From the NCBI RefSeq assembly GCF_004010195.1, contig NC_057757.1, positions 9,645,646-9,709,645 on the forward strand: a stretch of DNA of 64,000 bases, written 5' to 3'. The notes below the pieces were generated by a model. It was not told the origin of the DNA. It did not search any database and saw only the letters and a list, made by a program, of their open reading frames with translations. Below are positions 232 to 63,261 of the stretch, in pieces (the first letter of the stretch is position 1; each line of letters begins with the position of its first letter). The translations under genes were made by a program, and so were the position numbers. Source of the DNA: Chiloscyllium plagiosum. Taxonomy: Eukaryota.

Positions 232-994
232 ACAGGTGACCCCACTACACTATATACACTCTCTCTCCCTCTCACACACACACCCACACAGTTATATACT
301 CACACATTCATGCAGACCCTCTCTCATCCACACACACATACAGCTCCCACACTCACACCCACGCACGCATTCTCTCACAGGCTTATACTCCATCACATTC
401 ACACACCCACTTTACCAAGCTTGCACACATGCAAACACACGCTGTCTCATGTGCACTCACATTCATACACACGCACTCAGATAGACACACTCTGTCTCTC
501 TCCTGCATGCACACACACAGATCTGTTTGTGGGGTGAATTTGTATTTGCAGAATGATATTTGCAGGTACTTTCTCTTTTGCTCAAAAAATGCAAAACCTG
601 CAAAAAGTCAATGCAGGCAGTGAATCCATGTAATATTTGTAAATTCCACTTTGGAAGTAGAAGTAATCTGGCTCAAGATTGGTCTGACTTACACCATTAA
701 GGCATTGTCTGAGCTGAGATGTCACCTATTGTTATATAACTTTAAATTATCTTGAAAATGTGACTTAAAAGTAGTTCTGGGATTTACATATTAAAAGACC
801 GAAACCAGCAAATCCATTCTAAAAGATGAAAGACCTAACAATCTAGGTTTGTTCAATGTATCACTGTAATCCTTTGTTATAAATTCTGTGTCCTAAGATC
901 CTGCTCCACAGCTACCTGATGAAGCACTCCGAAAGCTAGTGCTCCCAAATAAACCTGTTGGACTATAACCTGGTGTTATGTGATTTTTAACTTT
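232..994 (+). mobile_element. Penelope-like element 3' region/pseudo-LTR with CA-rich tract and degenerate hammerhead motif
   Basis: CA-rich tract ~240-520; ends in ctgatgaagcactccgaaagctagtg...ggactataacctggtgttatgtgatttttaacttt, the same terminus as the copies at 2677, 7801 and 34940. Confidence 0.7.
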
Positions 995-1029
995 AGTCCT
1001 GGGATCCACATTGTATGGAACACAGCAAG

Positions 1030-2676: not shown

Positions 2677-2877
2677 AAGTTAAAAATCACACAACACCAG
2701 GTTATAGTCCAACAGGTTTATTTGGAAGCACTAGCTTTCGGAGCACTGCTCCTTCACCAGGTGATGAAGAAACAGCGCTTTGAAAGCTAGTGCTTCCAAA
2801 TACACCTGTTGGACTATAACCTGGTGTTGTGTGATTTTTAACTTTGTACACCCCAGTCCAACAATGGTGTCTCCAAA
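2677..2877. mobile_element. palindromic Penelope-like mini-element (inverted pseudo-LTRs plus tail)
   Basis: Arms ~2677-2760 and ~2761-2845 are reverse complements; flanked by tcagt(a/g)ttttgaa at 2666-2678 and 2878-2890. Confidence 0.8.
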
Positions 2878-2982
2878 TCAGTGTTTTGAAATGAGATATT
2901 GCTTTTGGGTTATTTGTTTCTCCCTCTGGAACTTCGTCCACGTGATGCACTGGTATCTGACAATCCTTTGTAAATAGTACTC

Positions 2983-3196
2983 AAGCAGGACGCTGGAAGA
3001 ACACAGCAAGCCAGGCAGCATCACGGGATGGAGAAATCAACATTTCGAGTATAACCTTCCTTCAAGAATTCCTGAAGAAGGATTACACCCTAAACGTTGG
3101 CTTCTTCACATCCTGAAGCTCTGTTGCTTGCTGTGTTCTTTCAGCCTCCTGCTTGTCAATTTTGGATTCCAGCATTTGCCGGTTTTTTTTGCCTCT
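2983..3196. mobile_element. older palindromic Penelope-like mini-element
   Basis: Imperfect inverted arms around ttcaagaattcctgaagaagg; decayed ctgaagaagg..acaccc.aaacgt motif. Confidence 0.65.
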
Positions 3197-3374
3197 AATT
3201 CCTTGTAGATTACTGTGGTGACCCAGAGTGCTTTACATCACCAATAGCAGTCCCAAGGGAATTCTCCAGATTTTTATTTTCCATTAATGGTCTCTCCCAG
3301 GAGATTACTCTGGGAGGTAGGAAGGTGTCTATACGTCTGGCATTATAGTTGTGAAACAGGTCTGATGGTATATC

Positions 3375-3464
3375 CTGATGAAGGGCTTATGTCCGAAACA
3401 TCGATTCTCCTGCTCCTCGGATGCTGCCTGACCTGCTGAGCTTTTCCAGCAACACATTCTTGAC
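3375..3464 (+). mobile_element. short Penelope-like terminus beginning at the hammerhead core
   Basis: Starts CTGATGAagggcttatgtccGAAAcatc; flanked by a perfect 14-bp duplication tctgatggtatatc (3361-3374, 3465-3478). Confidence 0.8.
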
Positions 3465-3655
3465 TCTGATGGTATATCTGACCTTTTCCTGTTCCTTGTT
3501 GCTGTAGATTTGGAATGAAGGTGGTGTAGTGAGATTGTCACTGATGATTCTGAGGCCCAGGCTAAGGTTTTAGGGACATGGATTCAAATCTTGCCCCACC
3601 AGCTGGTTAGTACATCCAAATAAAAAGCCAGTCTTCTTAATTGTGACCATGGTAA

Positions 3656-7800: not shown

Positions 7801-8002
7801 ACAAAGTTAAAAAATCACACAATACCACGGTATCGACCAACAGGTTTATTTGGACGGAGTAGCTTTCAGAGTGCTGCTTCATCATCAGGTGGTTTTGCAG
7901 AGATTTGAAAGCTTGTACCTCCAAATAAACCTGTTGGGCTATAACTTGGTGTTGTGTGATTTTTAACTTTAAGCAACCCAGTCCAACACTAGCTCCTTCA
8001 AA
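7801..8002. mobile_element. palindromic Penelope-like mini-element
   Basis: Same family as 2677; inverted arms; TSD tcttta(c/a)agggg at 7789-7800 and 8003-8014. Confidence 0.78.
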
Positions 8003-9006: not shown

Positions 9007-9593
9007 GTTCGTTAGCAGAGGGATTGAATTCAAGAGTCGTTAAGTGATGTTGCAGCTGTACAGGACTTTGTTTAGGCCACATTTGGAGTACTGTGTGCAG
9101 TTCTGGTTGCCTCACTTTAGGAAAGATGTGGAAGCTTTGGAGAGGGTGCAGAGAAGATTTACCAGGATGTTGCCTGGAATGGAGAGGAAGTCGTACGAGG
9201 ATAGGTTGAGAGTTCTCGGCCTTTTCTCGTTGGTACGGCGTAGGATGAGGGGTGACTTGATAGAGGTTTATAAGATGATCAGAGGAATAGATAGAGTAGA
9301 CAGTCAGAAACTTTTTCCCTGGGTACAACAGAGTGTTACAAGGGGACATAAATTTAAGGTGAAGGGTGGAAGGTATAGGGGAGATGTCAGGGGTGGGTTC
9401 TTTACCCAGAGAGTGGTGGGGGCATGGAATGCGCTGCCCGTGGGAGTGGTAGAGTCGGAATCATTGGCGACCTTTAAGCGGCATTTGGATAGGTACATGG
9501 ATGGGTACTTAATCTAGGTTAGAAGTTCGGCACAACATCGTGGGCCGAAGGGCCTGTTCTGTGCTGTATTGTTCTATGTTCTATGTTCTATGT
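9007..9593 (+). mobile_element. young CR1/HER1 LINE 3' fragment
   Basis: ORF 9044-9517 (LYRTLFRPHLEYCVQFW...FFTQRVVGAWNALP) and (ttctatg)n tail; 5' end lies in the gap; in-frame TAA at 9041. Confidence 0.95.
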
Positions 9594-16259: not shown

Positions 16260-16475
16260 GCGCTGAAAATGTGTTGCTGGAAAAGTGCAGCAGGTCAGGC
16301 AGCATCCAAGGAGCAGGAGAATCGACGTTTCGGGCATAAGCCCTTCTTCAGGAAACGGGCTTATGCCCGAAACGTCGATTCTCCAGCTCCTTGGATGCTG
16401 CCTGACCTGCTGCACTTTTCCAGCAACACATTTTCAGCTCTGATCTCCAGCATCTGCAGTCCTCACTTTCTCCTC
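16260..16475. mobile_element. young palindromic Penelope-like mini-element nested in CR1
   Basis: 82-bp inverted arms 16262-16343 and 16357-16438 (one mismatch); perfect 15-bp TSD taagattagggccaa (16245-16259, 16476-16490). Confidence 0.9.
16319..16354 (-). ncRNA. minimal hammerhead ribozyme motif
   Basis: Minus strand reads ttcCTGAAGA-A-GGGC-ttat-GCCC-GAAAC-GTC-gatt. Confidence 0.6.
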
Positions 16476-19336
16476 TAAGATTAGGGCCAATCAAGGGTAG
16501 TAGTGGGAAGTTGTGTGTGGGGTCTGTGGAAAGTGGAAAGTGTTAAATGAATATTTTTCATCAATATTCAGACTGGAAAAAGACAATGTTGTTGAGGAGA
16601 ATACTGAGATACAGGCTACGAGACAAGACAGGATTGAAGTTCATAAGGAGGAGGTGTTAACAATTCTGGAAAGTGTGAAAATAGATAAGTCTGCTGGGCC
16701 GGATGGGATTTATCCTAGGATTCTCTGGGAAGCCAGGGAGGAGATTGCAGAGCTTTTGGCTTTGATCTTTATTTTGTCATTGTCTACAGGAATAGTACCA
16801 GAAGACCGGAGGATAGCAAATATTGTCCCCTTGTTCAAGAAGGGGAGTAGAGACAACCCTGGTAATTATAGACCAGTGAGCCTTACTTGTGGGTAAACTG
16901 TTAGAAAAGGTTATAAGAGATAGGATTTATAATCGTCTAGAGAGGAATAAGTTGATTAAGGGTAGTCAACACGGTTTTGTGAAGGTAATTCGTGCCTCAC
17001 AAACCTTTTGAGATCTTTGAGAAGGTGACCAAACAGGTGGATGAGGGTAAAGCGGTTGATATGGTGCATATGGATTTCAGTGAGGCTTTTGAAAAGGTTC
17101 CCCATGGTAGCCTATTTCACAAAATACAGAGGCATGGGATTGAGGGCAACTTAGCAGTTTGGATCAGAAATTGGTTTGTTGTCAAACAACAGAGGGTGAT
17201 GGTAAATGGGAAATGGTCATCCTGGAGTTCAGTTATGAAATGATGTGCTGCAAGGATCTGTTTTGGGAGTACTGCTGTTTGCCATTTTTGTAAATAACCT
17301 GGATGAGGGCGTAGAAGGATGGGTAAGTAAATTCACAGATGACATTAAGGTCGGTGGTGTTGTGAATAATGTGGAAGGATGTTGCAGGTTACAGAGGGAC
17401 ATAGGTAACTGCAGAGCTGGCTAAGAGGTGGCAAATGGAGTTTAATGTGGAAAAGTGTGAGGTGATTCACTTTGGAAAGAGCACTAATGAGCACTCTGGG
17501 TAGTGTAGATGAGCAAAGAGGTCTTGCTGTCCATGTACATAGATCTCTGAAAATTACCACTCAGGTTGATAGGGTTGTTAAGAAGGCATATGGTGTGTTA
17601 GCTTTTATTGGTAGAGGGATTGAGTTTCGGAGTCACGAGGTCATGCTGCAGCTGTACAAAACTCTGGTGCGGCTGCACTTGGAGTATTGCATACAGTTCT
17701 GGTCACTGCATTATAAGAAGAAAGTGGAAGCTTTGGAGAGGGTCCAGAAGAGATTTACTGGAATGTTATCTGATATGGAGGGAAGGTTTTATGAGGAAAG
17801 GCTAAGGAACTTGAAGCTGTTTTCATTCGAGAGAAGAAGGTTGAGAGGTGAATTAATTGAAACATATAAGATAATCAGAGGGTTAGATAAGGTGGACAGG
17901 GAGAGCCTTTTTCCTCCGATGGTGATGGTTAGCAAGATAGAACATAACTTTAAATTGAGGGGTGTTAGATTTATGACAGACGTCAGAGATAGTAGCATGG
18001 AACGCACTACCTGTAACAGTAGTAAACTCACCAACCTTAATGACTTTTAAATGGTCATTGGATAGACATGTGGATGAAAATGGAACAGTTTAGAATAGAT
18101 AGACTTGAGATTGGTTCCACAGGGCGGTGCAACATTTGAGGGCCAAAGGGCCTGTACTGCGCTGTAATGTTCTATGTTCTATGAGGTGTCCATTACCAGT
18201 CCTGCTGGGATTTGCTAATGTACAAATGCAGTAGCATTGGCTGGGCAGAATTCCAAACTGATTCCAGAGGTCTCTGCTCCCACCACATGCCCTGGATATT
18301 AAGATCAATTCTATTAATGGTAACAATACATATATATTTTAGTAGGGGCTTATTATTGTGATGCATTGTAATTACTAATATACTTCCAATGATCCAATGA
18401 TCACTGCTGGAATTTGCTGATAGACATCAATGAAGGACAGCATTGGGCTTGGTTATATCCCCAAAACCCCATAGAAAATCCAGTTCCCCCACCCTCCCTG
18501 GAGTCCAGTGCTCTTCCACTGCCCAACACTATCTCTCCCAAGTGTGAAAGTGGACCCTTATGTGAGGTTGTGCAGCTCTTCTCAAACCTTGGCCCAGTAG
18601 CAGATTGAAAAGGAGGGGAAGGGAATGGGCGATGGGAAGGAGAGGTGAAAGGGATGCACTGACCAGCTCATCATGCATCTTGTAACAACCAATCAGGAGA
18701 CGCATGTCCCAAAATCGAGTGGGATGTTGCTGGATGGGTAGATGTAGGATAAGGTCCATGTCGTCATGGAGAGTAAACGTATCAGTTACCAGTTTGATCC
18801 ATCCCATTCCACAGGCAGTTTAAACGATAATCCAGACTCACATCCCAGCCAGCAATTAAAGCCAAGTTTCATTTATTCATTCACAGCCTATTACTTATAC
18901 AGGTGAGATATTACAACATCTGGAGGGGACACTCTATCTTCGAAATGGAGTTCTGTTGGAAGCAGATATAGGAGAAGATGGAGATTGTTGATCAAAGTAC
19001 TTTCATTGAGTGGGGTGATCAGTCAAACTCATGTCATCCTCTGGCCAAAAGCCAGGATTAAATGGTTCTCATATTGATTACCATTCTCCATGGGCTGAAC
19101 CAGAACCACCCTCAGTCTGTACTGAGACAGCTGGTTTTGGAAGTGGGAGAGACGGTTCAGGACATTGGGTAACTGACAATGGCCAGTATTCCCTGATTAA
19201 TCATTTCAGATGTTGGGAACTGTCGAGAAGAGAGAGAGGAACATCGTTTCCAGTTGTGGCATCAGTTTATTGGGCTGCATTTTGGGTGTGGGTGGGGTGG
19301 GAGGGGGGTGTCAGCTGAGGAGGGAATCGTTTAAAA

Positions 19337-20149: not shown

Positions 20150-23100
20150 AAACGTAGAGAGCGAGTGCAATGCTGTTGCAGAGACAACCTCAAGGGAGCA
20201 TTGCACTATCAGAGGGCCAATGTCAAGCAAGCACTGCATTGTTGGAGGGGTAGTACTGAGGGAATGGGCACTGTTGGAGGGTCGGTGCTGAGGGACTGCT
20301 GCACTGTCAGAGGGTCTGCACTGAGGGAGTGTCACACTGTTGGAGGGTCAGTGCTGAGGGAGCACCGCACTGTCAGAGGGTCAGTGTAGAGGGAGTGTAG
20401 TACTGCTGGAGGGTCAGTGCTGAGGGAGCACTGCACGATCAGGAGGTCAGTGCTGAGTGAGCACCGCACTGTCAGAGGGTCAGTGCTGAGGGAGCACCGT
20501 ACTGTCAGAGGGTCAGTGCTGAGGGAGTGCTGCACTGTCAGAGGGTCAGTGCTGAGGGATCGCCTCACTGTCAGAGGATCTGTGCTGAGGCAGTGCTGCA
20601 CAGTCAGAGGGTCAATGCAGAGCGAGTGTAGCACAGTGGGAGGGTCAGTGCTGATGGAGCACCGCACCGCCAGAGGGTCAGTGCTGAGGGAGTGCCACAC
20701 AGTCGGAGTGTCAGTACTGAGAGATCACTGCATTTTTGTAGAGACAGTGCTGAGGGAGTGCCGCATTGTCAGATTGTCAGTGCTGAGGGAGCACCTCACT
20801 GTCAGAGGGTCAGTGCTGAGGGAGCGCCTCACTGTCAGAGGATCTGTGCTGAGGGAGTGCTGCACTGTCAGAGGGTCAGTGCTGAGGGATGTGCTGCACT
20901 GTCAGAGGGTCAGTGCTGAGGGAGCGCTGCACTATCAGAGGGTCAGTGCTGAGGGAGCACCATATTGTCAGAGGGTCAGTGCTGAGGGAGTGCTGCACTA
21001 TCAGAGGATCAGTGCTGAGGGAGTGCTGCACTGTCAGAGGGTCAGTGCTGAGGGAGCACCGCGCTGTTGGAGGATCAGTGCTGAGGGAGCACTGCTCTGT
21101 CGGAGGCCCAGTGCTGAGGGAGCACCGCACTGTCAGAGGGTCAGAGCTGTGGGAGCATTGCACTGTCGGAGGAACAGTGCTGAGGGAGCACCTGACTGTC
21201 AGAGGGTCAGTGCTGAGTGAATGCCTCACTGTCAGGGTCAGTGCTGAGGGTGCACCGTACTGTCAGAGGGTCAGTGTTGAGGGAGCGCCTCACTGTCAGA
21301 GGGTCAGTGCTGAGGGAGTGCTGCACTGTCAGACGGTCAGTGCTGAGGGAGTGCCTCACTGTCAGAGGGTCAGTGCTGATGGAGTGCCGCACTGTCGGAG
21401 GGTCAGTGTTGAGGGAGTGCTGCATTGTCAGAGGCTCAGTGCTGAGGGAATGCTGCGTTGTCAGAGGGTCAGTACTGATGGAGTGCTGCACTGTCAGAGG
21501 GTCAGTGCTGAGGGAGTGTTGCACTGTCAGAGGGTCAGTGTTGAGGGAATGCTGTACTGTCAAAGGGTCAGTCCTGAGGGAGCACTGTACTGTAAGAGGG
21601 TCAGTGCTGAATGGTCAGAGGGTCCGTGCTGAAGAAGTGTCGCACTGTCAGAAGGTCAGTGCTGAGGGAGTGTTGCAATGTTGGAGGGTCAGTGCTGAGG
21701 GAGTGCCGCACTGTGAGAGGGTCAGTGCTGAGGAAGCGCCGCACTGTGAGAGGGTCAGTGCTGAGGGAGTGCTGCACTGTCAGAGGGTCAGGGCTGAGGG
21801 AGTGCCGCACAGTCAGAGGGTCAGTGCTGAGGGATCACTGTACTGTCAGAGGGTCAGTGCTGAGACAGTGCTGCACTGTCAGAGGGTCAGTGCTGAGGGA
21901 GCAACTCACAGTTACAGGGCCAGTCCTGAGGGAGCACTGTACTGTCAGAGGATCAGTGCTGAGGGAGTGCTGCACTGTCAGAGGGTCAGTGCTGAGGGAG
22001 TATTGCAATGTCAGAGGGTCAGGGGTGAGGGAGTGCTGCACTGTCAGAGGGTCAGTGCTGAGGGAGTGCTGCACTGTCAGAGGGTCAGTGCTGAGGGAGT
22101 GCCTCACTGTTGAAGGGTCAGTGCTGAGGGAGCGCTGCACTGTCAGAGGGTCAGTGCTGAGGGAGACTGTACTGTCAGAGGGTCAGTGTTGAGGGAGCGC
22201 CTCACTGTCAGAGGGTCAGTGGTGAGGGAGCACTGTACTATCAGAGGGTCAGTGCTGAGGGAGTGCTGCACTGTCAGAGGGTCAGTACTGAGGGAGCGCC
22301 TCACTGTTAGAGGGTCAGTGCTGAGCGTGCACCTCACTAACAGAGGGTCAGTGCTGAGGGAATGTCGCAGTGTTGGAGGGTCAGTGTTGAGGGAGCACCG
22401 CACTCTCGGAGGTTCAAAGCTGTGTGGGCGTCGCACTGTCGGATGGTCAGAGCTGTGGGGGCGCCGCACTGTTGGAGGGTCAATGCTGAGGGACTGCCGC
22501 ACTGTCAGAGGGTCAGTGTTAAGGGAGTGCCGCACTAACAAAGGGTCAGTGCTGAAGGAGCATCGCACTGTCAGATGGTCACTGCTGACGGAGTGCCACA
22601 CTGTCGGATGGTCAGCGCCGGGGCAGTGCTTCACTGTCCGAGGGTCAGTGCTGAGGGAAGTCACACTGTCAGAGGGTTAGTGCTGAGGAGAGTGACACTG
22701 TCGGAGGGTCAGTACTGAGGGAGTGCTGTACTGTCAGACAGTCAGTGCTGAGGGAGTGCTGCATTGTGAGAGGGTCAGTGCTGAGGTAGCATCTCACTGT
22801 CGAAGGGTCAGTGCTGAAGGAGTGCTGCACTGTTAGAGGGTCAGTGCTGAGGGAGTGTTTCAATGTCAGAGGGTCAGTGCTGAGGGAGTGCCTCACTGTC
22901 GAAGGGTCAGTGCTGAGGGAGTGCTACACTGTCAGAGGGTCAGTGCTGCGGGAGTGTTGCAATGTCAGAGGGTCAGTGCTGAGGGAGTGCTGCACTGTCG
23001 GAGGGTCAGTGCTGAGGGAGACTGTACTGTCAGAGCATCAGTGCTGAGGGAGTGCCTCACTGTCAGAGGGTCAGTGGTGAGGGAGCACTGTACTATCAGA

Positions 23101-24292
23101 GGGTCAGTGCTGAGGGAGCGCCTCACTGTCAGAGGGTCAGTGCTGAGGGAGCGCCTCACTGTCAGAAGGTCAGTGCTGAGGGAGTGCTGCACTGTCAGAG
23201 GGTCAGTGCTGACGAAGTGTTGCAGTGTTGGAGGGTCAGTGCTGAGGGAGTGCTGTGCTGTCGGAAGGTCAGTGCTGAGGGAGTGCTGCACTGTTAGAGG
23301 GTCAGTGCTGAGCGTGCGCCTCACTGTCAGAGGGTCAGTGCTGAGGGAATGTCGCAGTGTTGGAGGGTCAGTGCTGAGGGAGTGCTGCACTGTCAGAAGG
23401 TCAGTGCTGAGAGATCACTGCATTTTTGGAGAGTCAATACTTAGGGAGTGCCGCATGTCAGAAGGCCAGTGCTGACGAAGTGTCGCAGTGTTGGAAGGTC
23501 AGTGCTGAGGGAGTACCGCACTGTCAGACGGTCAGTGCTGAGGGAGTGCTGCACTGTCAGAGGGTCAGTGCTGAGGGAGAGCTGCACTGTCAGAGGGTCA
23601 GTGCTGAGGGAGCACTGCACTGTCAAAGCGTCAGTGCTGAGGGAGCACTGTACTGTCAGAGCATCAGTGCTGAGGGAGCGCCTCACTGTCAGAGGGTCAG
23701 TGGTGAGGGAGTGCTGTATTGTGACAGGGTCAGTGCTGAGGGAGCAGTATACTGTCAGAGGGTCAGTGTTGAGGGAGCGCCTCACTGTCAGAAGGTCAGT
23801 GCTGGGGGAGTGCTGGACTGTTGGAGGGTCAGTGCTGAGGGAGCACTGTACTGTCAGAGGGTCTGTGCTGAGTGAGTGCTGCACTGTCAGAGGGTCAGTG
23901 CTGAGGGAGTGCTGCACTGTCAGAAGGTCAGTGCTGATGGAGTACCATTCTGTCAGAGGGACAGTGCTGAGGCATTGCACAGTCAGAGGGTCAGAGCTGA
24001 GGGAGTACCACACTGTTAGAGTGTCTGTGCTGAGGGAGCACCGCTCTGCCAGAGGGTCGGTGCTGAGGGAGTGCCACATTGTTGGATGGTCAGTGCTGAG
24101 GGAGAGTCGCACTGTCGGAGGGTCAGTGCTGAGGGAGTGCTGCACTGTCGGAGGGTCAGTGCAGAGCGAGTGTTGCTCTGTTGGAGGGTCAGTTCTGAGA
24201 GAGTGCCGTACTGTTGGAGGATCAGTACTGAGGGAACAGGAACTGTTGGAGGGTCAGTGCTGAGGAAGTGCTGCACTGTTGTAACGTCAGTG
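20150..24292. repeat. 33-bp tandem satellite array (~4.1 kb, roughly 120 units)
   Basis: Consensus actgtcagagggtcagtgctgagggagtgctgc; 11-aa periodicity (TVRGSVLRECC) in the ORF track; edges more diverged. Confidence 0.97.
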
Positions 24293-24309
24293 CCAACTAT
24301 AATTAACTA

Positions 24310-25700
24310 TATTTCCTCCCACTCTGCTTTCTGTCAGGACTCCATTCACCCGTCCAGCTTTTCCATCTCTGTCACTTCTGAACTCCAAGATACAATGTTC
24401 ACCAGTATGTTTCTGAAAGAACCTTTTCTTTGCCTGACCCATCTCACACTCCTGTCCTCCCTCCTTCCTCTTCCTCTCAGAACAATAGGGTTCTCCGTGT
24501 TTTTACTTTCCACCCTACCGGACTCCACAATACCCCTCCTCCATTTTCACCACCTCCATGGGGATGTCACTAGCAAACACATCTTGCCATCCCCTCCATT
24601 GTTTGCATTTTGCAGGGACTGTTCCCTCTGTGACTACCTGGTCCCCTCCTCCATCACTTTCTCACTCCCCCATCACACTTCCCCATCAAGTCACAGGAAG
24701 TGTAACACTTGACCTTTGCCTTCCTCCCTCTTCACTTCCTGCCCAGTGAAGGGTGGCACAGAGGCTCAGTGGTTAGCACTTCTGCCTCATGGTGCCAGGG
24801 ACCTGGGTTCGATTCCACCATCGGGTGACTGTCTGTGTGAAGGTTGCATGATCTTCCTATGTCTGTGTGAGTTCCTCTGGGTGCTCCGGTTTCTTCCCAC
24901 AGTCCAAAACTGTGCAGAATAGGTGGATTGACCATAGTGTTCAGGGGTGTATAAGTTAAATGTATTTGCAATGGGAATTGTAGAGTGGAGGGGTGAGTCT
25001 GGGTGGGATGCTCTTCAGAGGGTTGGTGTGATTTAATATGCCAAACAGCCTGGTTCCATGCTGAAGTAGCATTTCACTTCACCTTTTCTTAATCTAGTCT
25101 TCTGTTTCGCTACTTACAAGGTGGTTTCCTTAATAGCAGGGAGATAAAACACAGACTGGGTACTGCTTTCCTTTATACCTCTGTTTTGTCCATGACAGTG
25201 ACCCTGACCTTTCAATTGCTCACCATTTGAATGCACCATCTTGTTCTCATTCTGTCCTGGACCTGTGACAATGTTCCAGCGAATCTCAGTGCGAGCTGGA
25301 GTTACAACATCTCATCTTCCACGTTGTCACTCTACAGCCTTCAGAGCTGAACATTGAGCTCAACAACTTTAGCATGAACTCTGTCCTCTGCGTTGATTAC
25401 AGCCCTCCCCTCCTCCAGTGTCCTGTTCGTGTGGATTTGCTGTTAGCAAAACCAATCTATTTTTGACTGTCCACAGCTATCATTGCTATCTCTCCATTCC
25501 ATTATTAGCGCTCACTTCATTGTTCACTCTCGGAACCCTGATCATATGTTCCACTCACTCCTACTCCCCAACATTACCATCATTCCCCAGTGCCCTTCAG
25601 TGCTGAAGAAGAGTCATATTGCACTCAAAATGGTAGTTCTCTTTCTATCTTCACAGATGCTGCTGAGTTTCTCCAGCATGCTGTTTTTATTTTGGACTTC
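24310..25700 (+). mobile_element. decayed Penelope-like element (ORF C-terminus plus pseudo-LTR) interrupted by HE1
   Basis: HILPSPPLFAFCRDCSLCDYLV resembles the 49863 copy; ends ctgaagaagagtcatattgcactc...cagatgctgctgagtttctccagc. Confidence 0.65.
24751..25062 (+). mobile_element. HE1-type V-SINE, older
   Basis: A/B boxes and V-domain recognisable. Confidence 0.85.
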
Positions 25701-26050: not shown

Positions 26051-26148
26051 CTGAGGAAGGGTCATTGGACTCGAAGCGTTAACTGATTTCTCTTCACAGC
26101 TGCTGCCAGACTTGCTGAGCTTTTCCAATAATTTTTGTTTTTGTTTCT
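26051..26148 (+). mobile_element. short Penelope-like terminus beginning at the hammerhead core
   Basis: CTGAGGA-A-gggtc-attg-gactc-gaagcgtt; sits in a ttctaattct repeat at the end of a Rex1-like tail. Confidence 0.65.
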
Positions 26149-27012
26149 AATTCTAATTCTAACAAGATAAGATTTAAAGGGCAGGACTTTTAACTGCTTT
26201 AAGAGTCTGACAGCTCTCTTTGACAAGTATTTTTGTCAAAACTTCTTGACATATTTGACAGGTCCCTTTGCAGGATGCTTCTGAAAGTTTTAACAGGTCT
26301 GTTCAGAGCTCCATTGAGCATGGCTCATTGATAAATTTATGCATTTTATACACATATTTATACCTACTTTTAATAAACCCAGAAAGGTCCTTGCTGCTCC
26401 CAAATGTGTCCAAGAGGTACACCACCACTTCAATCCTTTAGGTTTCACACTCCAAGGCTGACAAAATCCCATTTCAATGGTTGTAAATGTTAATTTAAAT
26501 GACTAGCTGCCCACAAAAAGGACATGTCAAATCCCAACCCAACCACTTTCCTGCTCCCACTAAACTGGGAAATGCTGTGTTTGGGAATGAGAATTACAAG
26601 TTGGGCCTCATCCATTCTGGTCAGGCCTCTCTCCGCTGTGGTGATAAATCTAGGCCTGGGTTTGGGATAATGATCTAAAATGCCCGACTGCTTTCTGCTC
26701 CAAAGCAGTAAAAGTCAACTAATCAGCCCAAATTCTCTTACAAACTCCTTTGAATCAGGAGGTAAAGGATTTGCTCTGTGATCCTTTCATTTAACTCAAC
26801 AAATAGAAAGATCATCTGCTGCCTGCAACATTCCCCAACTGATATTTTTTCTGTTAATTTGAAACACTTCTTGCTTATCTGACTATTAATTCCCTCAATT
26901 GTATTTGGAAAATGAAGCCTTCAGGATTTCAAGATACTTTATATATCTATCTCATTAAACAAACATTTCCAAGGAATGCCTTTTGTTTGCTTCAGACCCT
27001 CAAAGAACATAG

Positions 27013-27150
27013 GAGGGCTACGTTCCGATGAAGGGCTTTTGCCCGAAACATCGATTTTCCTGCTCCTCAGATGCTGCCTGACCTGCTGTGCTTTTCCAGC
27101 ACCACTCTAACCTAGACTCTGGTTTCCAGCACCTGCAGTTCTTGTTTTTA
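27013..27150 (+). mobile_element. short Penelope-like terminus
   Basis: ccgatgaagggcttttgcccgaaacatcg; TSD cctcaaagaa(c/t)atag at 26998-27012 and 27151-27165. Confidence 0.8.
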
Positions 27151-27154
27151 CCTC

Positions 27155-27860
27155 AAAGAATATAGAACGGTCCAGCACAGGAACAGGCCCTTTGGCCCAC
27201 CATGTCTGTGCCATCCATAATGCCATTCTCACCTAGTCTTATCTGCCTGCGCATGGCCCATATCCCTGTATTCCCTGCCTATTCATGTACCTGTCTAAAT
27301 GCCTCTTGAACTTTGCTATTGTATCTGCTTCTACCCACCTCCCCAGCAGTGTGTTTCAGACACCTAACAACCCTCTGTCTAAGAAACCTTTCCTCGCACA
27401 TTTTTAAATGTTCCCCCTCTCACCTTAAACCTGTGCCTTCTCGTACTCAACATTTCTACCCTGGGAAAGAGACTCTGATTACTCATCCTATCCATGCCCC
27501 TCATAATTTTATAAACTTCTATCAGGTTGGCCCTCAGAGTCTGACACTCTCGCGACAACAATCAAGCTTTGTCCAGCCACTCCTTATACCTAATGCACTC
27601 TGATCCAGGCAACATCCTGAGAAACAAAAACAGAAATTGCAGGAAAAGCTCAGCAGATCTGGCAGCATCTGTGGAGAGGAATCAGAGTTAACCCTTCATC
27701 AGAACATCCTCTACAAAGCCCCCACATTCTTCCTAGAGTGCAGTGACCAGAACTGCACACAATACTCCCAAGTGTGGCCTGACCAAAGCCTTATACAATT
27801 GTAAGGTAAGTATGCCTTACACCCCCTTTACCAGCTTGTCTACTTGTGTTGCTACTTTCG
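27155..27860 (-). mobile_element. CR1 LINE 3' fragment
   Basis: Minus-strand LRANLIEVYKIMRGMDR; CR1 3' UTR at the left end. Confidence 0.88.
27619..27702 (-). mobile_element. short Penelope-like terminus nested in CR1
   Basis: Ends in cttcatcag (CTGATGA on minus); TSD aacatcct at 27611-27618 and 27703-27710. Confidence 0.7.
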
Positions 27861-32703: not shown

Positions 32704-34842
32704 GAACAAAGAACAAAACAGCACAAGAACAGGTCCTCCGGCCCTCCAAGCGTGTGCCGACACATTTTGCCCCTCCATATTAAAACTGTCTTCACTTACA
32801 GGATCAGTATCCCTCCATTTCCTTCCTATTCGTGTATTCACTCAGGGACTTCTTGAAGGCTGCTATTGTGTCTGCTTCCACCACCTCCTCTGGCAGCGCG
32901 TTCCAGGCACTCAGCATTCTTTGTGTGAAAAACTTGCCTTGCACATCTCTTTTAAACTCGCTCCCCCCTCCCCCTACACCTTGAACCTCCCCACGCACCT
33001 TGAACCTGTATCCCCTAGTAATTGACCCTTCAACCTGGGAAAAAGCCTCAGACTTTCCACTCTAACTGTGCCAGTCACAATCTTATAAACGTCTGTCTGG
33101 TCACCCCTCAACCTCCTATGTTCAAGTAAAAACAATCCCATTCTACCTAACCCTTCCTCATTGCTAAAATCCCTCATACCAGGCAACATCCTGGTAAACC
33201 TTTTCTGTACCCTCTCCAAAGCATCCACATCCTTCTGGTAGTGTGCACAATATTCCAATTGTGGCCTAACGAAAGTTTTATAAAGCTGCAGCATAACTTG
33301 GCCCTCCTTATTTGCAATTCCCCTTCCAATGAAGGTAAGCATGCCATAGGCCTTTTTTACAACCTTATCTACCTGCGCTGCCACCTTGAATGATCTATGG
33401 ACCTGAACACCCAGATCCCTCCGCATAAAAATACTCCTAAGAGTCTTACCATTCACTGTATAATTTCCACCTGTACTTGACCTTCCAAAATGCATCACCT
33501 CACATTTGTCTGGATTAAACTCATCTGTCATTTTTCTGCCCATGCCTCCAACTGATCTATATCCTGCTGTATCCTTGGACAATCTCATTATCTGCAACTG
33601 CAGCAATCTTTGTATCATCCAACTTACTAATTAGACCAAATCATTTCTGTGGACCACGAACACCAGAGGTCCTCTATGGAACACCACCAGCCATCATCCT
33701 CCATCCCGAAAAGCATTCTTCCCCTGCTATCCTCTGTCTCCTATGACTAAGCCAATTCTGTATCCATCTTGCCAGCTCACCCTGATACCATGTGACTTTA
33801 CCTTTTGTACCAGTCTGCCATAAGGCATCTTGTCAAAGACTTTACTGAAGTTCACGTACACAACATCAACTGCTTTTCCCTTAATCATCTTCACCACCTC
33901 CTCAGAAAACCCGATCAAGTTAGTGGGGCACAACATCCTCTGCACAAAACCACGCTGTCTATCATTAATAAATCCATTTGCTTCAAAATGCGTGTAGGTC
34001 TTGTCCCTGAGAATCTTTTCTAATAATTTTCCTACCACTGAGATGAGGCTCACAGGCCTGTAATTTCCAGGATTATCCCTATGACCCTTCCTAAATAATC
34101 GGATAACATTGGCGATTTGCTCATCCTCTGGGACCTCACCTGTGGCCAAAGAAGATATAAAGATGCCTGCCAATGTTCCAGCAACTGCCTCCCTCAATCT
34201 TCTGGGATAGATTCCATCAGGACCCCAGAACTTAGTCATCTTTTTTCTTTCCTACAGTGTGGAAGCAGGCCACTCAGCCTATCAAGTCCACAGCGACCCC
34301 GCAAAAAGCACCCCAAACATACCTACCTCCCTAGCCTATCCCTGTAACCCTCTATTTCCCACAGCAAATCCACCTAGCCTGCACATCCCTGGACACTATG
34401 GGTAATTAAGCATGGCCAATCCACCTAACCTGCACATCTTTGGACTGTGGGATGAAACTGGAGCACCCAGGGGAAACCCACGCAGACACGGGGAGAATGT
34501 GCAAACTGTACGCAGTCACCTGAGGGTGGAATTGAACCCAGGTTCCTGGTGCTGTGAAGCAGAAGTGCTAACCCGTATCCACCTTAATACTTTTTAAGAT
34601 GCACAACACCTCTTCCTTTTTAATAGCAACTTTGCTTAGAAATTCGAAACTCCCTTCCCTGAGATCATCCTCCACCATTTTCTTTTCTTTGGTGAATATT
34701 GATACAAAGTATTCATTGAGGACCTCACCAACGTCTTCTGGCTCCACACATACAATCCCTCCTTTGTCCTTGAGTGGGCCGACCCTTTCCCTGGTTACCT
34801 TTTTGCTTTTCTTAATCCTGTTTGCTAATAGCTTTTCACAAC
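32704..34842 (-). mobile_element. younger CR1 LINE fragment nested in the older CR1
   Basis: Minus ORFs 33727-34239 (GPDGIYPR...GNYRPVSL) and 32974-33618; (agaacaa)n tail at 32704. Confidence 0.9.
34250..34572 (-). mobile_element. HE1-type V-SINE nested in CR1
   Basis: V-domain and head on the minus strand. Confidence 0.87.
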
Positions 34843-34939: not shown

Positions 34940-35208
34940 TAATTGGAAGCACACTAGCTTTCAGAGCGACGCTCCTTCATCAGGTGATTGTGGAGGGCTC
35001 GATCGTAACACAGAATTTATAGCAACAATTTGCAGTGTGATGTAACTGAAATTATACATTGAAAAATTGATTGTCTGTTAAGCCTTTCATCTGTTAGAAT
35101 ACAGTGATAGTTTCACTTCTTTCATGTGTAAATCACAAAACCCTTTATAACCTGGTGTTGTGTGATTTTTAACTTTGTACACCCCAATCCAACACCGGCA
35201 TCTCCAAA
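34940..35208. mobile_element. Penelope-like insertion with inverted 5' part
   Basis: Perfect 15-bp TSD tctctgtagcctgtt (34925-34939, 35209-35223); 34940-35145 on minus, 35146-35208 terminus on plus. Confidence 0.85.
34952..34986 (-). ncRNA. minimal hammerhead ribozyme motif
   Basis: Minus strand reads cac-CTGATGA-A-GGAGC-gtc-GCTCT-GAAA-GCTA-gtg; helix I cac/gtg, AGCT palindrome. Confidence 0.65.
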
Positions 35209-38936: not shown

Positions 38937-39630
38937 ATGGAATATTGTGTGCAATTCTGGTTTATAGGAAGGATGTTGTGAAACTTGAAAGGGTTTATAA
39001 AAGATTTACAAGGATGTTGCCAGGGTTGGAGGATTTGAGCTATAGGGAGAGGCTGGACAAGCTGGAGCTGTTTTCCCTGGACCATCAGAGGTTGAGGGGT
39101 GACCTGATAGAGGTTTATAAAATCATGAGGGACATGGATAGAGTAAATCGACAAGGTCTTTTCTCTGGGGTGGGGAAGTCCAGAACTAGAGGGAATAGGT
39201 TTAGGGTGAGAGGGGAAAGAATTAAAAGGGACCTAATGGGCAACGTTTTCATGCAAAGGGTGGTGCGTGTATGGAATGAGCGGACATGGATAGAGTAAAT
39301 CGACAAGGTCTTTTCTCTGGAGTGGGGAAGTCCAGAACTAGAGGGAATAGGTTTAGGGTGAGAGGGGAAAGATTTAAAAGGGACCTAATGGGCAACGTTT
39401 TCATGCAAAGGGTGGTGCGTGTATGGAATGAGCTGCCAGAAGAAGTGGTGGAGGCCGGTATGATTACAACATTTAAGAGGCAGCTGAATGGTATATGAAT
39501 AGTAAGTGTTGAGAGGGATATAGGCCAAGTGCTGGGAAATGGGACTGGATAAGTTTTGGAAATCTGGTCAGCCTGAACGAGTTGGACTGAAAGGTCTGTT
39601 TCCATGCTGTACATTTCTACAGCTCTATGT
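38937..39630 (+). mobile_element. CR1 LINE 3' fragment with an internal 152-bp tandem duplication
   Basis: ORF2 C-terminal motifs; 39130-39281 repeated at 39282-39433. Confidence 0.92.
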
Positions 39631-42295: not shown

Positions 42296-43580
42296 AAACC
42301 AGCCTTCCATCCATTGACTCCATCTATAATTCCATCCACTGACTCCATCTATACCTCCATCCACTTACTCCATCTATAACTCCATCCATTGACTCCATCT
42401 ATAACTCCATCCATTGACTCCACCTATAACTCTATCCACTGACTCTATCTATAACTCCATCCAATGACTTCACCAATAACTCCATCCACTGACACCATCT
42501 ATAATCCCATCCACTGACTCCATCTATAACTCCATACATTGACTCCATCTATAATTCCATCCAATGACTCCATCTATAATTCCATCCATTGACTCCATCT
42601 ATAATTCCATCCATTGACTCCATCTTTAACTCCATCCACTGACTCTATCTATAACTCCATCCATTGACTCCATCTATAACTCCAATCACTGGCTCCATCT
42701 ATAACTCCATCCACTGCTCCATCTATAACTCCATCCATTGACTCCATCTATAATTCCATCCACTGACTCCATCTATAATTCCATCCATTGACTCCATGTA
42801 TAACTCCATCCAATGACTTCATCTAGAACTCCATTCACTGGCTCCAACTATAACTCCATCCACTGGCTCCATCTATAACTCCATCCACTGACTCCATCTA
42901 TAACTCCATCCACTGACTCTATCTATAATTCCATCCATTGACTCCATCTATAACTCCATCCACTGACTCCATGTATAACTCCATCCACTGACTTCATCTA
43001 TAACTCCATTCACTGGCTCCAACTATAACTCCATTCACTGGCTCCAACTATAACTCCATCCACTGGCTCCATCTATAACTCCATCCACTGCTCCATCTAT
43101 AACTCCATCCATTGACTCCATCTATAACTCCATCCACTGACTCCATCTATAATTCCATCCACTGACTCCATCTATAACTCCATCCACTGGCTCCAACTAT
43201 AACTCCATCCACTGACTCCATCTATAACTCCATCCACTGACTCCATCTATAATTCCTGCTGCCTTGGGAAAGTAAAGAACAATCAAAGACCCCTCCCACC
43301 TTGGTTGTGTTTTCTCTTCCATTGGGCCGAGGGTGTAAAAGTTTGAATACACTTGCGAACAAATTCAAGACCAGCTTCTTTCCCCCTGTTATCAGAGTTT
43401 AGGACAGACCTCTCAAATGTTAATTCTGATCTCTCTCTGTGTACCTTCTCTGTGGCTGTTACACTGTATTGTGTTTTGCTATTCTGATACATTTGGAACG
43501 GTACGATCTGCCTGTGTACATGCAAAACAACACTTTTCGCTGTATCTCGATGAGACAACAATAAAATAATTAATCAATCT
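42296..43580 (+). mobile_element. Rex1-like LINE 3' fragment containing an expanded minisatellite
   Basis: SLPSIDSIY...CLGK...IKDPSH...NKFKTSFFPPVIR-type ORF2 end, 3' UTR and aatca tail. Confidence 0.7.
42307..43255. repeat. 25-bp minisatellite (~38 units)
   Basis: Unit ctccatccactgactccatctataa. Confidence 0.97.
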
Positions 43581-44289: not shown

Positions 44290-44398
44290 GGAAATTAAAG
44301 AAAAACAGAAAATGCTGGAGAAACTCAACAGGTTATGTAATCTCTTTGGAGAGAGAAACAGAACTGATATTTCAAGTCTGATAAGACTGTTCTTCAGA
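44290..44398 (-). mobile_element. short Penelope-like terminus
   Basis: Minus strand CTGAAGA-A-cagtc-ttatca-gactt-GAAA...tttctccagcattttctgtttt. Confidence 0.6.
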
Positions 44399-49368: not shown

Positions 49369-49862
49369 GCTATTTGATGTTCTATTGGACTGTGTGATTA
49401 AGAGCTAGATATTTTGTTAATACCGGTTTGCCAGTCTGTGTGATTGGGAGCTAATGAGCTAGTTATCAAATTATCTGAACATGATATGAATGTGGCAGTG
49501 ATGTTGGGAGGAATGTTTTTACAAAGCAAGCAGTTCCATTCTGTAGCAGAACACTGACATGATCTCGTGTTTCAGATCGCTCTCCAATGCAGCAGTTCAC
49601 CAGTACCCTGCAAAAGAATATTAACTTCATATATTGTGCACATTCGTCAAGGCTACCTAATATCAGATTTGAAAAAGGGGTCCAGTTGAATTCCCCACTG
49701 AAGTGGTTCTGCCTCGGAAGAAATGTCACTTGTTCCCAAAACGGAGTTCACCTTGATTGGGTTTACAGTAGATATTCCACCACTTCTCCCATCCCAGCTT
49801 GTGTGGGAGAGTCTGTGATCAGACAGTGAGTGGTTTACTCAGACAGAGGCTTCAGAGCTGAG

Positions 49863-50640
49863 AAAGTGAGGACTCCAGATGCTGGAGTACCAGAGTTGAA
49901 AAATGTGGTGCTGGAAAAACACAGCAGGCCAGGCAGCATACGAGGAGCAGGAGAATCGACGTTTCGGGCATAAGCCCTTCTTCAGGAATGAGGCTGGTGT
50001 GCCAAGCGGGCTGAGATAAAAGGTAGGGGGGAGGGGCGCTGGGAATACGATAGGTGGAAGGAGGTGAGGGTGAGGGTGATAGGCCGGAGAGNNNNNNNNN
50101 NNNNNNNNNNNNNNNNNNNNNNNNNNNNNNNNNNNNNNNNNNNNNNNNNNNNNNNNNNNNNNNNNNNNNNNNNNNNNNNNNNNNNNNNNNNNNNNNNNNN
50201 NNNNNNNNNNNNNNNNNNNNNNNNNNNNNNNNNNNNNNNNNNNNNNNNNNNNNNNNNNNNNNNNNNNNNNNNNNNNNNNNNNNNNNNNNNNNNNNNNNNN
50301 NNNNNNNNNNNNNNNNNNNNNNNNNNNNNNNNNNNNNTGGTTGCGGGGGAAGGGGCCGGGTGTGGAGGTGGGGTTGGTGGGGGGGTGTGGATCTGACGAG
50401 GGAGGGAGTGGTCTCTCCGTAACGCTGATAGGGGTGGGGATGGAAATATATCCTTGGTGTCTGTTTGGAGGTGGCGGAAATGACAGAGGATGATACGATG
50501 TATCCGGTGGAAGGTGAGGACCAGTGGGGTTCTGTCCTGGTGGCGATTGGAGGGGCGGGGTTCAAGGGCGGAGGTGCGGGAAGTGGAGGAGATGCAGTGG
50601 AGATTGTCGTCGACCACGTCAGAGGGGAAATTGCGGAGGG
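49863..50640 (-). mobile_element. Penelope-like element, 5'-truncated, spanning a gap
   Basis: Minus ORF ISSTSRTSALEPRPSNRHQDRTPLVLTFH...DIFPSPPLSALRRDHSL; pseudo-LTR with hammerhead; gagctgag on both flanks. Confidence 0.82.
49954..49989 (-). ncRNA. minimal hammerhead ribozyme motif
   Basis: Minus strand reads attc-CTGAAGA-A-GGGC-ttat-GCCC-GAAAC-GTC-gatt; ACGT palindrome. Confidence 0.62.
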
Positions 50641-55199: not shown

Positions 55200-57010
55200 A
55201 GCCCAGAGAACCCTGGGTGTCCCGAAATATTCAAGACTGAATAAAAAGGAAAAGAGAGTTGAAAAAAGGAGGAAAGGGAGTGAAATAGTGGAGGCTTCTA
55301 GAGGAGTATGGAAAGGGCAGGAAAACTAGGGAGATTCCCAAGATATTCTATAAATATATGAAGGGGAAGGGTATAATCAGAAAAAGAGCAGGGAAGAAAG
55401 GAGCAGTGGAATCAGACAACATTGGAAGGGTGTTAAATCAGTGTTTCATTTCAGTTTTCACTCGGGGGAGGGTGTGGTTAGGGAGGACAACTGTGAAGTT
55501 GTTATCTTCATCTACACACACGGTCACCTCCACGAAAAATTAAATAAACTTTGTTCGGCATGACCTCCCTCTGACAGAACCATTCTGACTAATCCTGATC
55601 AAACCTTGCCTCTCTAAATGAAGATTAATTTTCTCTTTCACTCCTTCCTCCAATAGTTTCTCAACCACTGATGTGAAAGTCACTGGTGTATAGTTTTCCC
55701 TGGTCTATCTCTACCACCCTTCTTGAAAAGAGGAACCATATTAGCTGTCCTCCAGTCCTCTGGCACCTCCCCTGTGGCCAGAGAAGAAGAATTAAAAATT
55801 TGGGTCAGATGAGAGTAGTGTGGTTAATTCAGTTTACATGGATTTCAGCAATGCCTTTGACAATGGATAGAGATGAAGAAGGTAAAAGCACATGGGATCC
55901 AGGGTAACTTGGCAAGATCACCTAAAATTAGTGGTCTGTGTCATTGGAGCCCGGTATGCAGTGGTATGCCATTGGATCTGTGCTGGGTCCCTTATTGTTC
56001 ATTATGTGTGTGAACGATGGAGATGAGAATGTGGGGTCAGGATTAGTAAGTTTGTGGATGACATGAAGATTGGTCAGGTGGCTAATAGCGAGGAAGGTTT
56101 TAGATTATAGAAAGATATAGGTGGGTTGGTTTTGATGGCGGATCAGGGGGCAAATGCAATTTAATCCTGATAAATGTGAGGTGATGCATTTTGGAAGAAG
56201 TAACAAAACAAGAGAGTACTCAATGGATGTCAGGAGCCTAGGAAGCTCCGAGGAATGATCAGATCTTAGGATGCATGTCCACTGCTCACTGATGGTGGCA
56301 GGACTGGTTAATAAGGACTGGTTAATAAGGGAAATATGAAGGCATACAAGACATGTGCTTTTATCAGTCGTAACATAGATTATAAGAGCAGGGAGGTCAT
56401 GTTGGAGTTGTACAGGACTTTGGTTAGAACACACTTGGAGTACTGTGTCCAGTTCTGGTCCACATACTGTAGGAAGGATGTGATTGCAATGGAGGATGTT
56501 CAGAGAAGACTCACCAGGATGTTGTCTGGAATGGAGCATTTCAGCGATGAAGAGAAGCTGGATAAGCTCGGGTTGTTTTCTTTGGAGCAGGGAAGGCTGA
56601 GGAAAGACATGATTGAGGAGTATAAGATTATGAGGGGCATGGATAGGGTGGATACAAAGCAGCTGTTCCTCTTCATTTAAAGGTGAATAACAAGGGGACA
56701 TCATTTTGGGATGATGGGTAGCAAATTATTTTTCACCCAGAGTGTGGCAGTCATAAACCTTTAAACAATATGTGAGTCGAAAAGTGTGGCGCTGGAAAAG
56801 TACAGCTGGTCAGGCAGCATCCGAGGAGCAGGCGAATCGATGTTCCGGGTATAAGCCCTGTATCAGGAATGAGTGAATATATGGACGAGCACTTGAAATG
56901 TTATAACATTCATGTCTATGGACCAAATGCTGGAAGGTGGAACTACTGTTGATAGGTCAGTGCAGATTCAATGGGCTGAACGGCCTCTTCTGCAATGTAT
57001 GACTCCGTGA
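55200..57010 (+). mobile_element. decayed CR1 LINE with an internal inversion
   Basis: ORF2 motifs in order, but ~55498-55806 lies on the minus strand; ORF 56336-56680. Confidence 0.85.
56775..56872 (-). mobile_element. short Penelope-like terminus nested in CR1
   Basis: Homologous to 49905-49990, with a degenerate core. Confidence 0.72.
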
Positions 57011-62861: not shown

Positions 62862-63260
62862 ACATAAGAACATAAGAAATAGGAGCAGAATTCGGCCATG
62901 TGGCCGTTTGAGCCCACTCCATCATTCAATAAGATCATGGCTGATCTTTTTGGGGCCTCAGCTCCATTTATCCACCCTCCCACCATAACCCTTAATTCCT
63001 TTGTTGTTCAAAAATCTATCTTTGCCTTAAAAACATTTAAACAGGTAGCCTCAACTGCTTCACCGTACAGGAATTCTACAGATTCACAATCCTTTGGAAG
63101 ATGCTCCTCTTCAACTCAGTCCTAAATCTATTTTGAGGCTCTGCCCGTGGTTCTAGTTTCACCCTTCAGTGGAAACAACCTCCCTGCTTCTACCTTATCT
63201 ATTCCCTTCATAATTTTATATGTTTCTAAACGATCCCCTCTCATCCTTCTAAATTCCAAT
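62862..63260 (-). mobile_element. CR1 3' fragment
   Basis: acataagaacataagaaataggagcag tail on plus; cataattttatatgtttct. Confidence 0.8.
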
Positions 63261-63261
63261 G

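Follow-up and report, generated by a model that had tools for sequence, protein, structure and literature searches.

The window analysed here, a 64-kb stretch of Chiloscyllium plagiosum DNA, contains near its left end two copies of a 14-bp sequence, TCTGATGGTATATC, which occupy positions 3361-3374 and 3465-3478 and form a perfect target-site duplication (TSD) around a 90-bp insert at 3375-3464. That this insert starts exactly at CTGATGA, as a first-pass annotation of the same DNA had reported, is borne out. All offsets given below are counted from that motif, with +1 denoting the C of CTGATGA and -1 the base just before it. The insertion and its borders are organised as follows.

3361..3374, plus strand: left TSD, 14 bp, of which the last 2 nt are also the element's -2 and -1 (5' microhomology)
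3375..3402, plus strand: minimal type I hammerhead motif of family A, its palindromic CG decayed to CA
3375-3381, 3383-3394 and 3395-3398, plus strand: core, stem II and GAAA of that motif, laid out as in PMC4209133
after 3402 (+28), plus strand: predicted cleavage
3403..3464, plus strand: tail of a Penelope-like element (PLE), stopping at the first of two 3'-end clusters (+82..+96)
3465..3478, plus strand: right TSD

The 6 nt of target that directly follow the tail match the continuation of the element, which constitutes microhomology at the 3' end, and the in-silico empty site at 3361 has no second match within the window. The predicted fold of this copy is an extended hairpin from +2 to +29. 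It was also observed that the palindromic CG, which is needed for dimer pairing, has become CA through CpG decay in three family A stubs (3399-3400, 27049-27050 and 56841-56842), and that this decay strengthens the alternative hairpin.

Hammerhead-bearing insertions in the window

Profile searches of the window identified 16 hammerhead-bearing insertion units, belonging to families A, A', B and C. Besides the insertion at 3375, they include the following.

27013..27150, plus strand: family A stub, 5' end at -12 and 3' end at +126 (long tail); TSD 14/15, 26998-27012 and 27151-27165
56775..56875, minus strand: family A stub, 5' end at about -9; weak TSD, 7/8
26051..26146, plus strand: stub of family B that begins at the core; TSD 13/14, extending into the first bases of the core
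27619..27702, minus strand: stub of family B that begins at the core and has lost the GAAA and most of stem II; TSD 8/8
44290..44398, minus strand: decayed family B hammerhead and tail; no TSD-defined ends
16260..16475, no single strand: head-to-head family A insertion, arms beginning at about -3 and +8 and ending at +88 and +125; TSD 15/15
2679..2877, no single strand: head-to-head family C insertion, junction at the core (about 2761); TSD 12/13
2980..3185, no single strand: head-to-head insertion of family A', old; the axis lies ~4 nt ahead of each core, and no TSD is convincing
7801..8002, no single strand: head-to-head family C insertion, arms beginning at about -6 to -8 and at +12; TSD 11/12
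34940..35208, no single strand: family C insertion whose inverted arms do not overlap (twin-priming type); it extends to about -155 and has TATAAAT at -38 (35021-35015); TSD 15/15
49863..50640, minus strand: long family A copy with RT-thumb coding 50402-50635, an N gap and 3' UTR; initiator-like TCATTC, the A of which is position -4 (49989); core of the hammerhead at 49985 and a tail ending at +125; TSD 8/8
24134..25700, plus strand: old long family B copy, left end approximate, with a decayed RT thumb at 24542-24652, a GIY-YIG C-terminus at 25188-25370 and the hammerhead at 25603
232..997, plus strand: long family C copy, left end approximate, with TATAAAT at 878-884 (-38) and the core at 916

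Several of these insertions had been listed in the first-pass annotation as beginning at or close to the core. For starts at or beside the core, the copies at 26051 (TSD 13/14) and 27619-27702 (TSD 8/8) stand, and the one at 44290-44398 does not, its end being unplaceable and the best repeat, of 6 nt, lying away from its ends. For starts within ~12 nt of the core, the copy at 27013 stands with its end at -12 and a TSD of 14/15; the minus-strand insert at 56775 begins at about -9 with a TSD of only 7/8, and its edge lies at 56875 and not at 56872. The accompanying statement that each insert contains the core does not hold for 27619-27702, where GAAA and most of stem II are gone, and the ~60-110 nt said to extend past the predicted cut agree with the tail lengths of 62-98 nt found here. 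The 12 nt that precede the core at 27013-27024 resemble pieces of the core (the start of stem II, then the bases before the cut) and not the family A upstream sequence; the real element end of this copy may be at -3, with a rearranged fragment in front.

Five insertions in the window have inverted arms, and four of them join at the core; the same-strand copies are all solitary. The two arms of the insertion at 16260-16475 differ from one another at 1 of 74 nt, as compared to 5-10 from other copies, and their near-identity indicates that both arms came from one source at insertion. The arms of the insertion at 34940-35208 (+50 to -155, and +55 to the tail end) resemble LINE twin priming, unlike the overlapping head-to-head forms. 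Insertion junctions carry microhomology of 2-6 nt.

The surrounding DNA is rich in other repeats. Satellite arrays lie at 20234-24279 (a 33-bp unit, x123) and 42306-43256 (a 25-bp unit, x38), and LINE RT fragments, which we take to be CR1-like, at 9044-9517, 17466-18050, 32974-34251, 56105-56725, 58964-59443 and 63126-63617; several of the hammerhead stubs are embedded in LINE copies of this kind. Units of 152 and 288 bp (at 39125-39433 and 62142-62726) each occur twice in tandem, the two copies being 96-98% identical, and these duplications may be artefacts of the assembly.

The source element and its hammerhead

The stubs are TSD-flanked copies of the hammerhead-plus-tail module of a PLE. 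Within the long copy at 49863-50640, the segment 50402-50629 displays 61-73% identity to five database proteins, four of them from a bamboo shark, and the RT-thumb segment is 68-73% identical to the proteins P0001-P0004; P0004 matches RVT_1 above the Pfam cut-off, and P0003 carries a CxxxxCxxC linker together with a GIY-YIG match below the cut-off. The same database proteins also match the old copy at 24134-25700, in its thumb and in its GIY-YIG C-terminus. The RT-thumb piece of the window itself produced no Pfam match, and family C has no coding remnant in the window.

This organisation corresponds to that described for EN+ PLEs, whose insertions are 5'-truncated and include a pseudo-LTR (pLTR), a 30-40-nt tail and an adjacent inverted copy (PMC8557442, PMC3846280). 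Shared with those elements are a source that encodes RT and GIY-YIG, a hammerhead in the pLTR, an optional tail and head-to-head inverted arms (the window contains five adjacent inverted 5'-truncated copies), as well as TSDs of 8-15 bp and microhomology junctions. A full-length copy with the order pLTR-ORF-pLTR was found nowhere in the window, and use of the tail as a leader was seen in one relative only. The linker CX2-5CxxC of the Neptune clade is present in P0003 and in alignment A2, copy 49985 having an N gap at that place; judged by this cysteine linker, the layout of the source is Neptune-like.

The hammerhead is equally recognisable. CUGANGA and GAAA boxes, a bulged base and a stem II closed by G-C are found in 3375, 49985, 16351, 916 (where stem II is partly deleted) and 34983, and a descriptor of the motif gave 5 matches in the window, compared to a mean of 0.02 in 100 shuffles; many of the other copies are decayed, and Rfam at its gathering score returned no match in the window. 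A palindromic dinucleotide replaces stem III (CG in families A, A' and B, GC in C, and CA in 3375, 27013 and 56866), and stem I, stem II and the dinucleotide covary between families, stem I being only 3-4 bp long. The predicted cut in family A falls after +28. With the minimal type I hammerheads of PMC4209133 the stubs have in common the core, the unpaired base before stem II, the G-C closing pair, a stem I of short length and a palindromic dinucleotide where stem III would be; in 2014 it had likewise been noted that minimal hammerheads occur mostly as solitary copies and as close opposite-strand pairs (Cervera and de la Pena, PMC4209133). Two other readings, a type III topology and a cut at the CUC before -4, just ahead of the core, were rejected on inspection: neither stem III nor stem I has a partner upstream.

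Outside the window, a scan with alignment A2 recovered 15 related loci in genome contigs (L015-L029) and none in viral contigs, and scans for related loci with P0003 found nothing. A pattern scan gave no match in viral contigs; in metagenome contigs it gave none and then 14 loci, all rejected as chance matches without hammerhead or tail. Seven of the 15 loci come from a single assembly. The contigs are filed in bacterial assemblies and carry eukaryote-type PLE ORFs, several with hammerheads and TA microsatellites; they are likely contamination from a host or another eukaryote. At L015:2552-2615, and also in L016 and L020, CCAAT, TATATAAA and a hammerhead with a CCGACGA core follow in promoter-like order right after the ORF stop. 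At L017:1818-3001 lies a permuted PLE, in which an inverted 3' part, from the RT thumb as far as hammerhead and tail, adjoins a direct part which leads into the ORF's start and itself begins at +39, ten bases past the predicted cut. In this related PLE the tail, +39..+85, is the leader of an ORF with its ATG at +164, and the inverted arm ends at about +85.

Distribution of the 5' ends

Nine of the 13 insertions whose ends can be placed have their upstream limit within -12..+3 of the core, and the remaining four are long (49985, 25603, 916 and 34983). Three of the 16 units were left out of this count (37078, which abuts an N gap, and 44397 and 30271, which lack a TSD), and two were included without a convincing TSD, namely 3068, which is placed among the nine by its inversion junction, and 916, which is among the long. 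The probability of at least nine of 13 under the constant truncation rate most favourable to chance is 9e-7, for a slot that was chosen after seeing the data. A permissive TSD search of 300 random 90-nt windows produced scores of at least 14 in 15 of them (all 16-21, and probably due to the tandem arrays of the window), of 13-15 in none and of 10-12 in seven.

Profiles built from the tail only found 20 tail arms in the window, of which one abuts a gap and 19 have readable upstream sequence, and no additional solo copy devoid of a core; the cluster was therefore not made by searching for the core. In three tail arms, all belonging to inverted insertions, the first part of the core is missing, and a start at the predicted cut (+29) occurs in none of the 19 readable arms. 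The 3' ends fall into two clusters, at +82..+96 and at +125/126, both in the copies of the window and among loose ends in public data.

Those public data comprised four runs, compared with a reference spanning 49840-50091 that extends 105 nt upstream from the core. One consists of raw poly(A) single-cell reads (X21), two are DNA contigs under two species labels (X1 and X12), and the last is a contig set guessed to be RNA (X9). Among the best 24 of 902 rows of loose ends, the largest 5' row lies at -4 in all four runs, with 230 reads in X21 and 528, 547 and 74 contigs in the three contig runs, the count for X1 being a lower bound. The next in the contig runs, among the rows listed, are -3 and +6, and also -5 in X1 and X12; the row at +6 is read as ends at +1/+2 clipped at a variant base, since its clipped letters complete the core. 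The loose letters agree at ~0.3 in the contig runs, as expected of unrelated flanks, and 7 of the 10 strand-switch joints listed (among the best 15 of 49 joint rows) have one side at -2..-8. The non-random placement of 5' ends proposed in the first-pass annotation is supported within the window and, among the rows listed, in the four runs.

Read depth in X21 follows the same edge. It amounts to 2059 at +29..+37, 1974 at +20..+28, 932 at -7..+2, 295 at -8..-16 and about 95 at -60, a loss of ~7-fold from the core region to beyond -8, with ~14% continuing past -8; the steepest step (x0.32) is that at -8..-16, the step at the cut site is x0.96, and none is found across +20 to +33. Subfamilies with different upstream DNA add to this drop (the loose consensus at -5 is G-rich), and the X21 row at -8, with an agreement of 0.77, is probably a single locus. 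No pile-up of molecule ends appeared among the rows listed, although in a poly(A) single-cell library, which is fragmented, such a signal would hardly be expected; likewise there was none at +28/+29 in this one poly(A) library, which is uninformative for cleavage activity. Contigs of X1 and X12 were also seen to join -3/-4 to +28..+31 (49988/49989 to 49955/49958) with 1-3 letters between; these joints are probably tandem duplications of the core, and could have arisen by template jumps onto a cleaved 3' end or by slippage on the ATTC repeated at -4 and +30.

Origin of the 5' edge

On balance, we favour an explanation in which the edge of the stubs is a run-off at an RNA start just before the ribozyme, following tail priming near the RNA 5' end. 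Studies of the purified protein of PAc, a Poseidon element of Anolis, demonstrated that cDNA synthesis by a PLE RT begins internally, at the two tail positions of an RNA that has not been cleaved, and that both nicked strands are extended (Frangieh et al. 2024, PMC11167929), and PLE transcripts start in the upstream pLTR (PMC2377424, PMC6765202); every PLE mRNA should therefore carry a priming site near its 5' end. In the favoured explanation the pLTR promoter would start the RNA at the first base of hammerhead stem I, and the element's RT, primed in the tail near the front of that RNA, would run off a 5' end whose predicted position is 4-8 nt before the core. Priming on the first tail would yield a cDNA of only 90-130 nt, and joining by 2-4-nt microhomology would trim its end to -4..+2; the microhomologies of 2-6 nt observed at the junctions could thus explain the spread of ends to +2. 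Extension of both nicked strands, or fold-back, would produce the head-to-head forms with their junction at the same place, and long copies would derive from priming on the downstream tail of a read-through RNA. The ribozyme would mark the position of the edge and not cause the stop. A fixed template end predicts -4; ends at +20 or further on would be expected from arrest at the fold and at +29 from cleavage, and a circle predicts passage through +28/+29 with tandem or permuted units.

Core promoters are known to carry TATA and initiator consensus motifs, and both were sought upstream of the hammerheads. Exact TATAWAW lies at -38/-39 in three of the eight families with visible upstream DNA (shark family C, the L015/16/20 family and L022:2778), the background being 0.1-2% per 5-nt slot; one family has a single-mismatch match at -38, and four of the eight, including family A, have none near -38. 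Because the -38 slot was first noticed in family C, the independent test amounts to two of the seven other families. Family A, to which the -4 peak belongs, displays no TATAWAW within one mismatch, only TTTTATCT at -36, together with an initiator-like YYANWY (TCATTC) whose A is at -4. That base is also the first of stem I, so that the initiator and stem readings are confounded, and the initiator match may simply follow from the need for base pairing in DNA rich in pyrimidines. Not every end respects the predicted start: 27013 reaches -12, and the inverted arm of L018 -12..-16 (compared to -8/-9 predicted). An untemplated cap-type G is absent from the 5' junctions of 3375, 26051, 27702 and 56866; in three of the four runs the loose letters at -4 begin with a sense G, which a subfamily variant could also give and which is not counted as evidence. 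In Drosophila virilis, Penelope starts ~120 nt upstream of helix I, with a 46-nt exon and a 75-nt intron in between (PMC2377424, PMC4209133), and the geometry of the stubs is accordingly not universal.

The strongest competitor, which we nonetheless judge unlikely, supposes a longer template on which RT stops just past the hammerhead, held up at stem I or upstream of it by a bound PLE protein, by pairing with a second hammerhead in the dimer, or by release as the cDNA folds. It is a displaced form of an idea in the first-pass annotation, namely arrest of reverse transcription at the ribozyme fold, which the position of the ends does not support: RT meets the fold from its 3' side (+20 to +32) and by the time it reaches the ends, at -4..+2, it has copied all the helices, with no corresponding depth step between +20 and +33. 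The coincidence of the edge with the 5' end of stem I (-4 in family A, and -3 in family C, where the junction at 2761 allows -1..-3) fits a barrier, as do the predicted hairpin of the 3375 copy and the action of protein on this region, the PAc hammerhead cleaving only with protein (PMC11167929); longer templates do get used, since long copies with uncut hammerheads occur. Against it, all helices are unwound before RT gets to -4, stem I has only 3-4 bp, the 3375 insert folds no better than its own shuffles (z -0.17), and the fixed distance from the TATA box is left unexplained.

A self-propagating, non-autonomous (SINE-like) family, in which stub masters are transcribed and mobilised by the PLE protein, is a less probable alternative still. 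The abundance of stubs (nine of the 13 placeable units) and the ~14% of depth past -8 are in its favour, and non-autonomous PLE derivatives have been described (PMC8557442; bioRxiv 10.64898/2026.07.22.740005). However, stubs differ from one another at 7, 9 and 10 of 74 nt and from the long copy at 7, 8 and 10 (three stubs, a small sample), they have no upstream TATA, the same edge appears in several unrelated families, and the loose ends share no common 5' flank (agreement about 0.3).

The possibility that the edge is mostly apparent, with subfamilies alike in hammerhead and tail and unlike upstream so that alignments break at the core, appears very remote, and is largely refuted within the window. 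The G-rich loose consensus at -5 and a partial consensus at -3/-4 indicate some subfamily or inversion signal; the loose letters mostly disagree among themselves, and TSDs (3375, 27702, 26051 and 27013) and four inversion junctions place the edge independently of any alignment.

No more credible is the other mechanism of the first-pass annotation, a retrozyme-like route of hammerhead cleavage, re-ligation to a circle and copying across the junction. Such a route was proposed for PLEs in PMC4209133, which does not predict an edge at -4 and, in the text covered, leaves copy ends unmapped. The intact minimal hammerhead layout, the covariation of its stems in three families and the few listed joints that touch +28..+31 are consistent with it, and tandem retrozymes have been reported in one chondrichthyan (bioRxiv 10.64898/2026.07.22.740005). 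It leads one to expect ends at +29, or permuted ends and tandem monomers, and gives no reason for a stop at -4; none of the 19 readable tail arms starts at +29, no tandem monomers occur in the window, and depth has no step at the cut. PAc, moreover, needs no cleavage for insertion in vitro, using uncleaved RNA as template, and neither RNA ends nor reads were found at its cut site (PMC11167929). Animal non-LTR retrozymes are likewise non-coding, with a type I hammerhead, long TSDs and an origin from PLE pLTRs, and differ in being tandem 150-450-bp units that release monomers and circles (PMC7229834; bioRxiv 10.64898/2026.07.22.740005), whereas the stubs are solitary or head-to-head, with one minimal hammerhead per strand, at whose 5' edge they start. 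None of the 12 tandem-repeat rows of the window is a head-to-tail hammerhead tandem, and neither a canonical hammerhead with stem III nor ends set by cleavage were found, the motif being minimal and none of 19 arms starting at the cut. By the tandem and cleavage-end criteria the stubs are not retrozymes; as for the 'retrozyme-like, non-autonomous unit' suggested earlier, the stubs are non-coding and, like animal retrozymes, related to PLE pLTRs, but the tandem organisation that defines retrozymes is absent, and the three stubs compared are no closer to each other than to the RT-bearing long copy. The pattern first noticed was right, and both mechanisms proposed for it are unlikely.

Finally, an edge at a 3' splice site, with stubs copied from a spliced leader whose tiny first exon was lost, can be put aside as barely plausible, for although a CAG is found 3-10 nt ahead of the core in the long copies 49985, 916 and 25603, and in D. 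virilis helix I is where the intron ends (PMC4209133), 190 of 280 family A reads carry a different base at the G of this AG, the loose ends share no common exon sequence, and none of the listed skipping joints has splice-type ends.

Run-off at the RNA start would recall, by analogy only, a product of another class of element. In LTR retroelements, priming near the RNA 5' end followed by run-off generates a short cDNA of fixed length, the minus-strand strong-stop DNA; in the stubs the primer would be the nicked target DNA and the product integrable, with no tRNA primer, RNase H or integrase. An extension of this analogy, which we regard as speculative and improbable, supposes an mRNA reaching from stem I to the cut in the downstream pLTR, with a 32-nt repeat (-4..+28) at both ends. 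Target-primed cDNA would start in the 5' leader, run off and jump by way of the repeat to the 3' end, building a pLTR in LTR fashion, and the stubs would be strong-stop products integrated without the jump. The few contigs that join -3/-4 to +28..+31 hint at such jumps, and ATTC slippage (-4, +30) explains them equally well.

The insertions are ordinary PLE debris, of a known class, and what is non-random in them is the edge. In the EN+ PLE literature (PMC8557442, PMC3846280) 5' truncation is described as a general feature; the stubs here have a fixed edge at the first base of stem I, and the majority measure 90-140 bp. The work on PAc agrees with the stubs in two internal starts that define the tail and in the extension of both strands, and differs in priming without homology (several stub junctions have 2-6 nt) and in the ORF start, which lies inside the hammerhead in PAc and at +164 in L017; it treats 3' ends, and run-off at the 5' end is absent from the text covered (PMC11167929). 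A fixed 5' edge at stem I, or run-off there, was not found in the freely accessible literature that the searches covered; short PLE stubs were already known, and the fixed edge is the part for which we found no report, although Supplementary Figure S2 of PMC11167929, a plot of how genomic copies cover the junction of pLTR and ORF, may already contain such an edge.

How pseudo-LTRs arise and what the hammerheads do are open questions on PLEs (PMC8557442, PMC11167929). Should the edge mark the start of the RNA, the stubs, abundant at 16 units per 64 kb of this window, would constitute a fossil map of both ends of the first cDNA, namely the site of priming in the tail and the start of the template; and the strong-stop cycle, if true, would provide a function for the PLE hammerhead.
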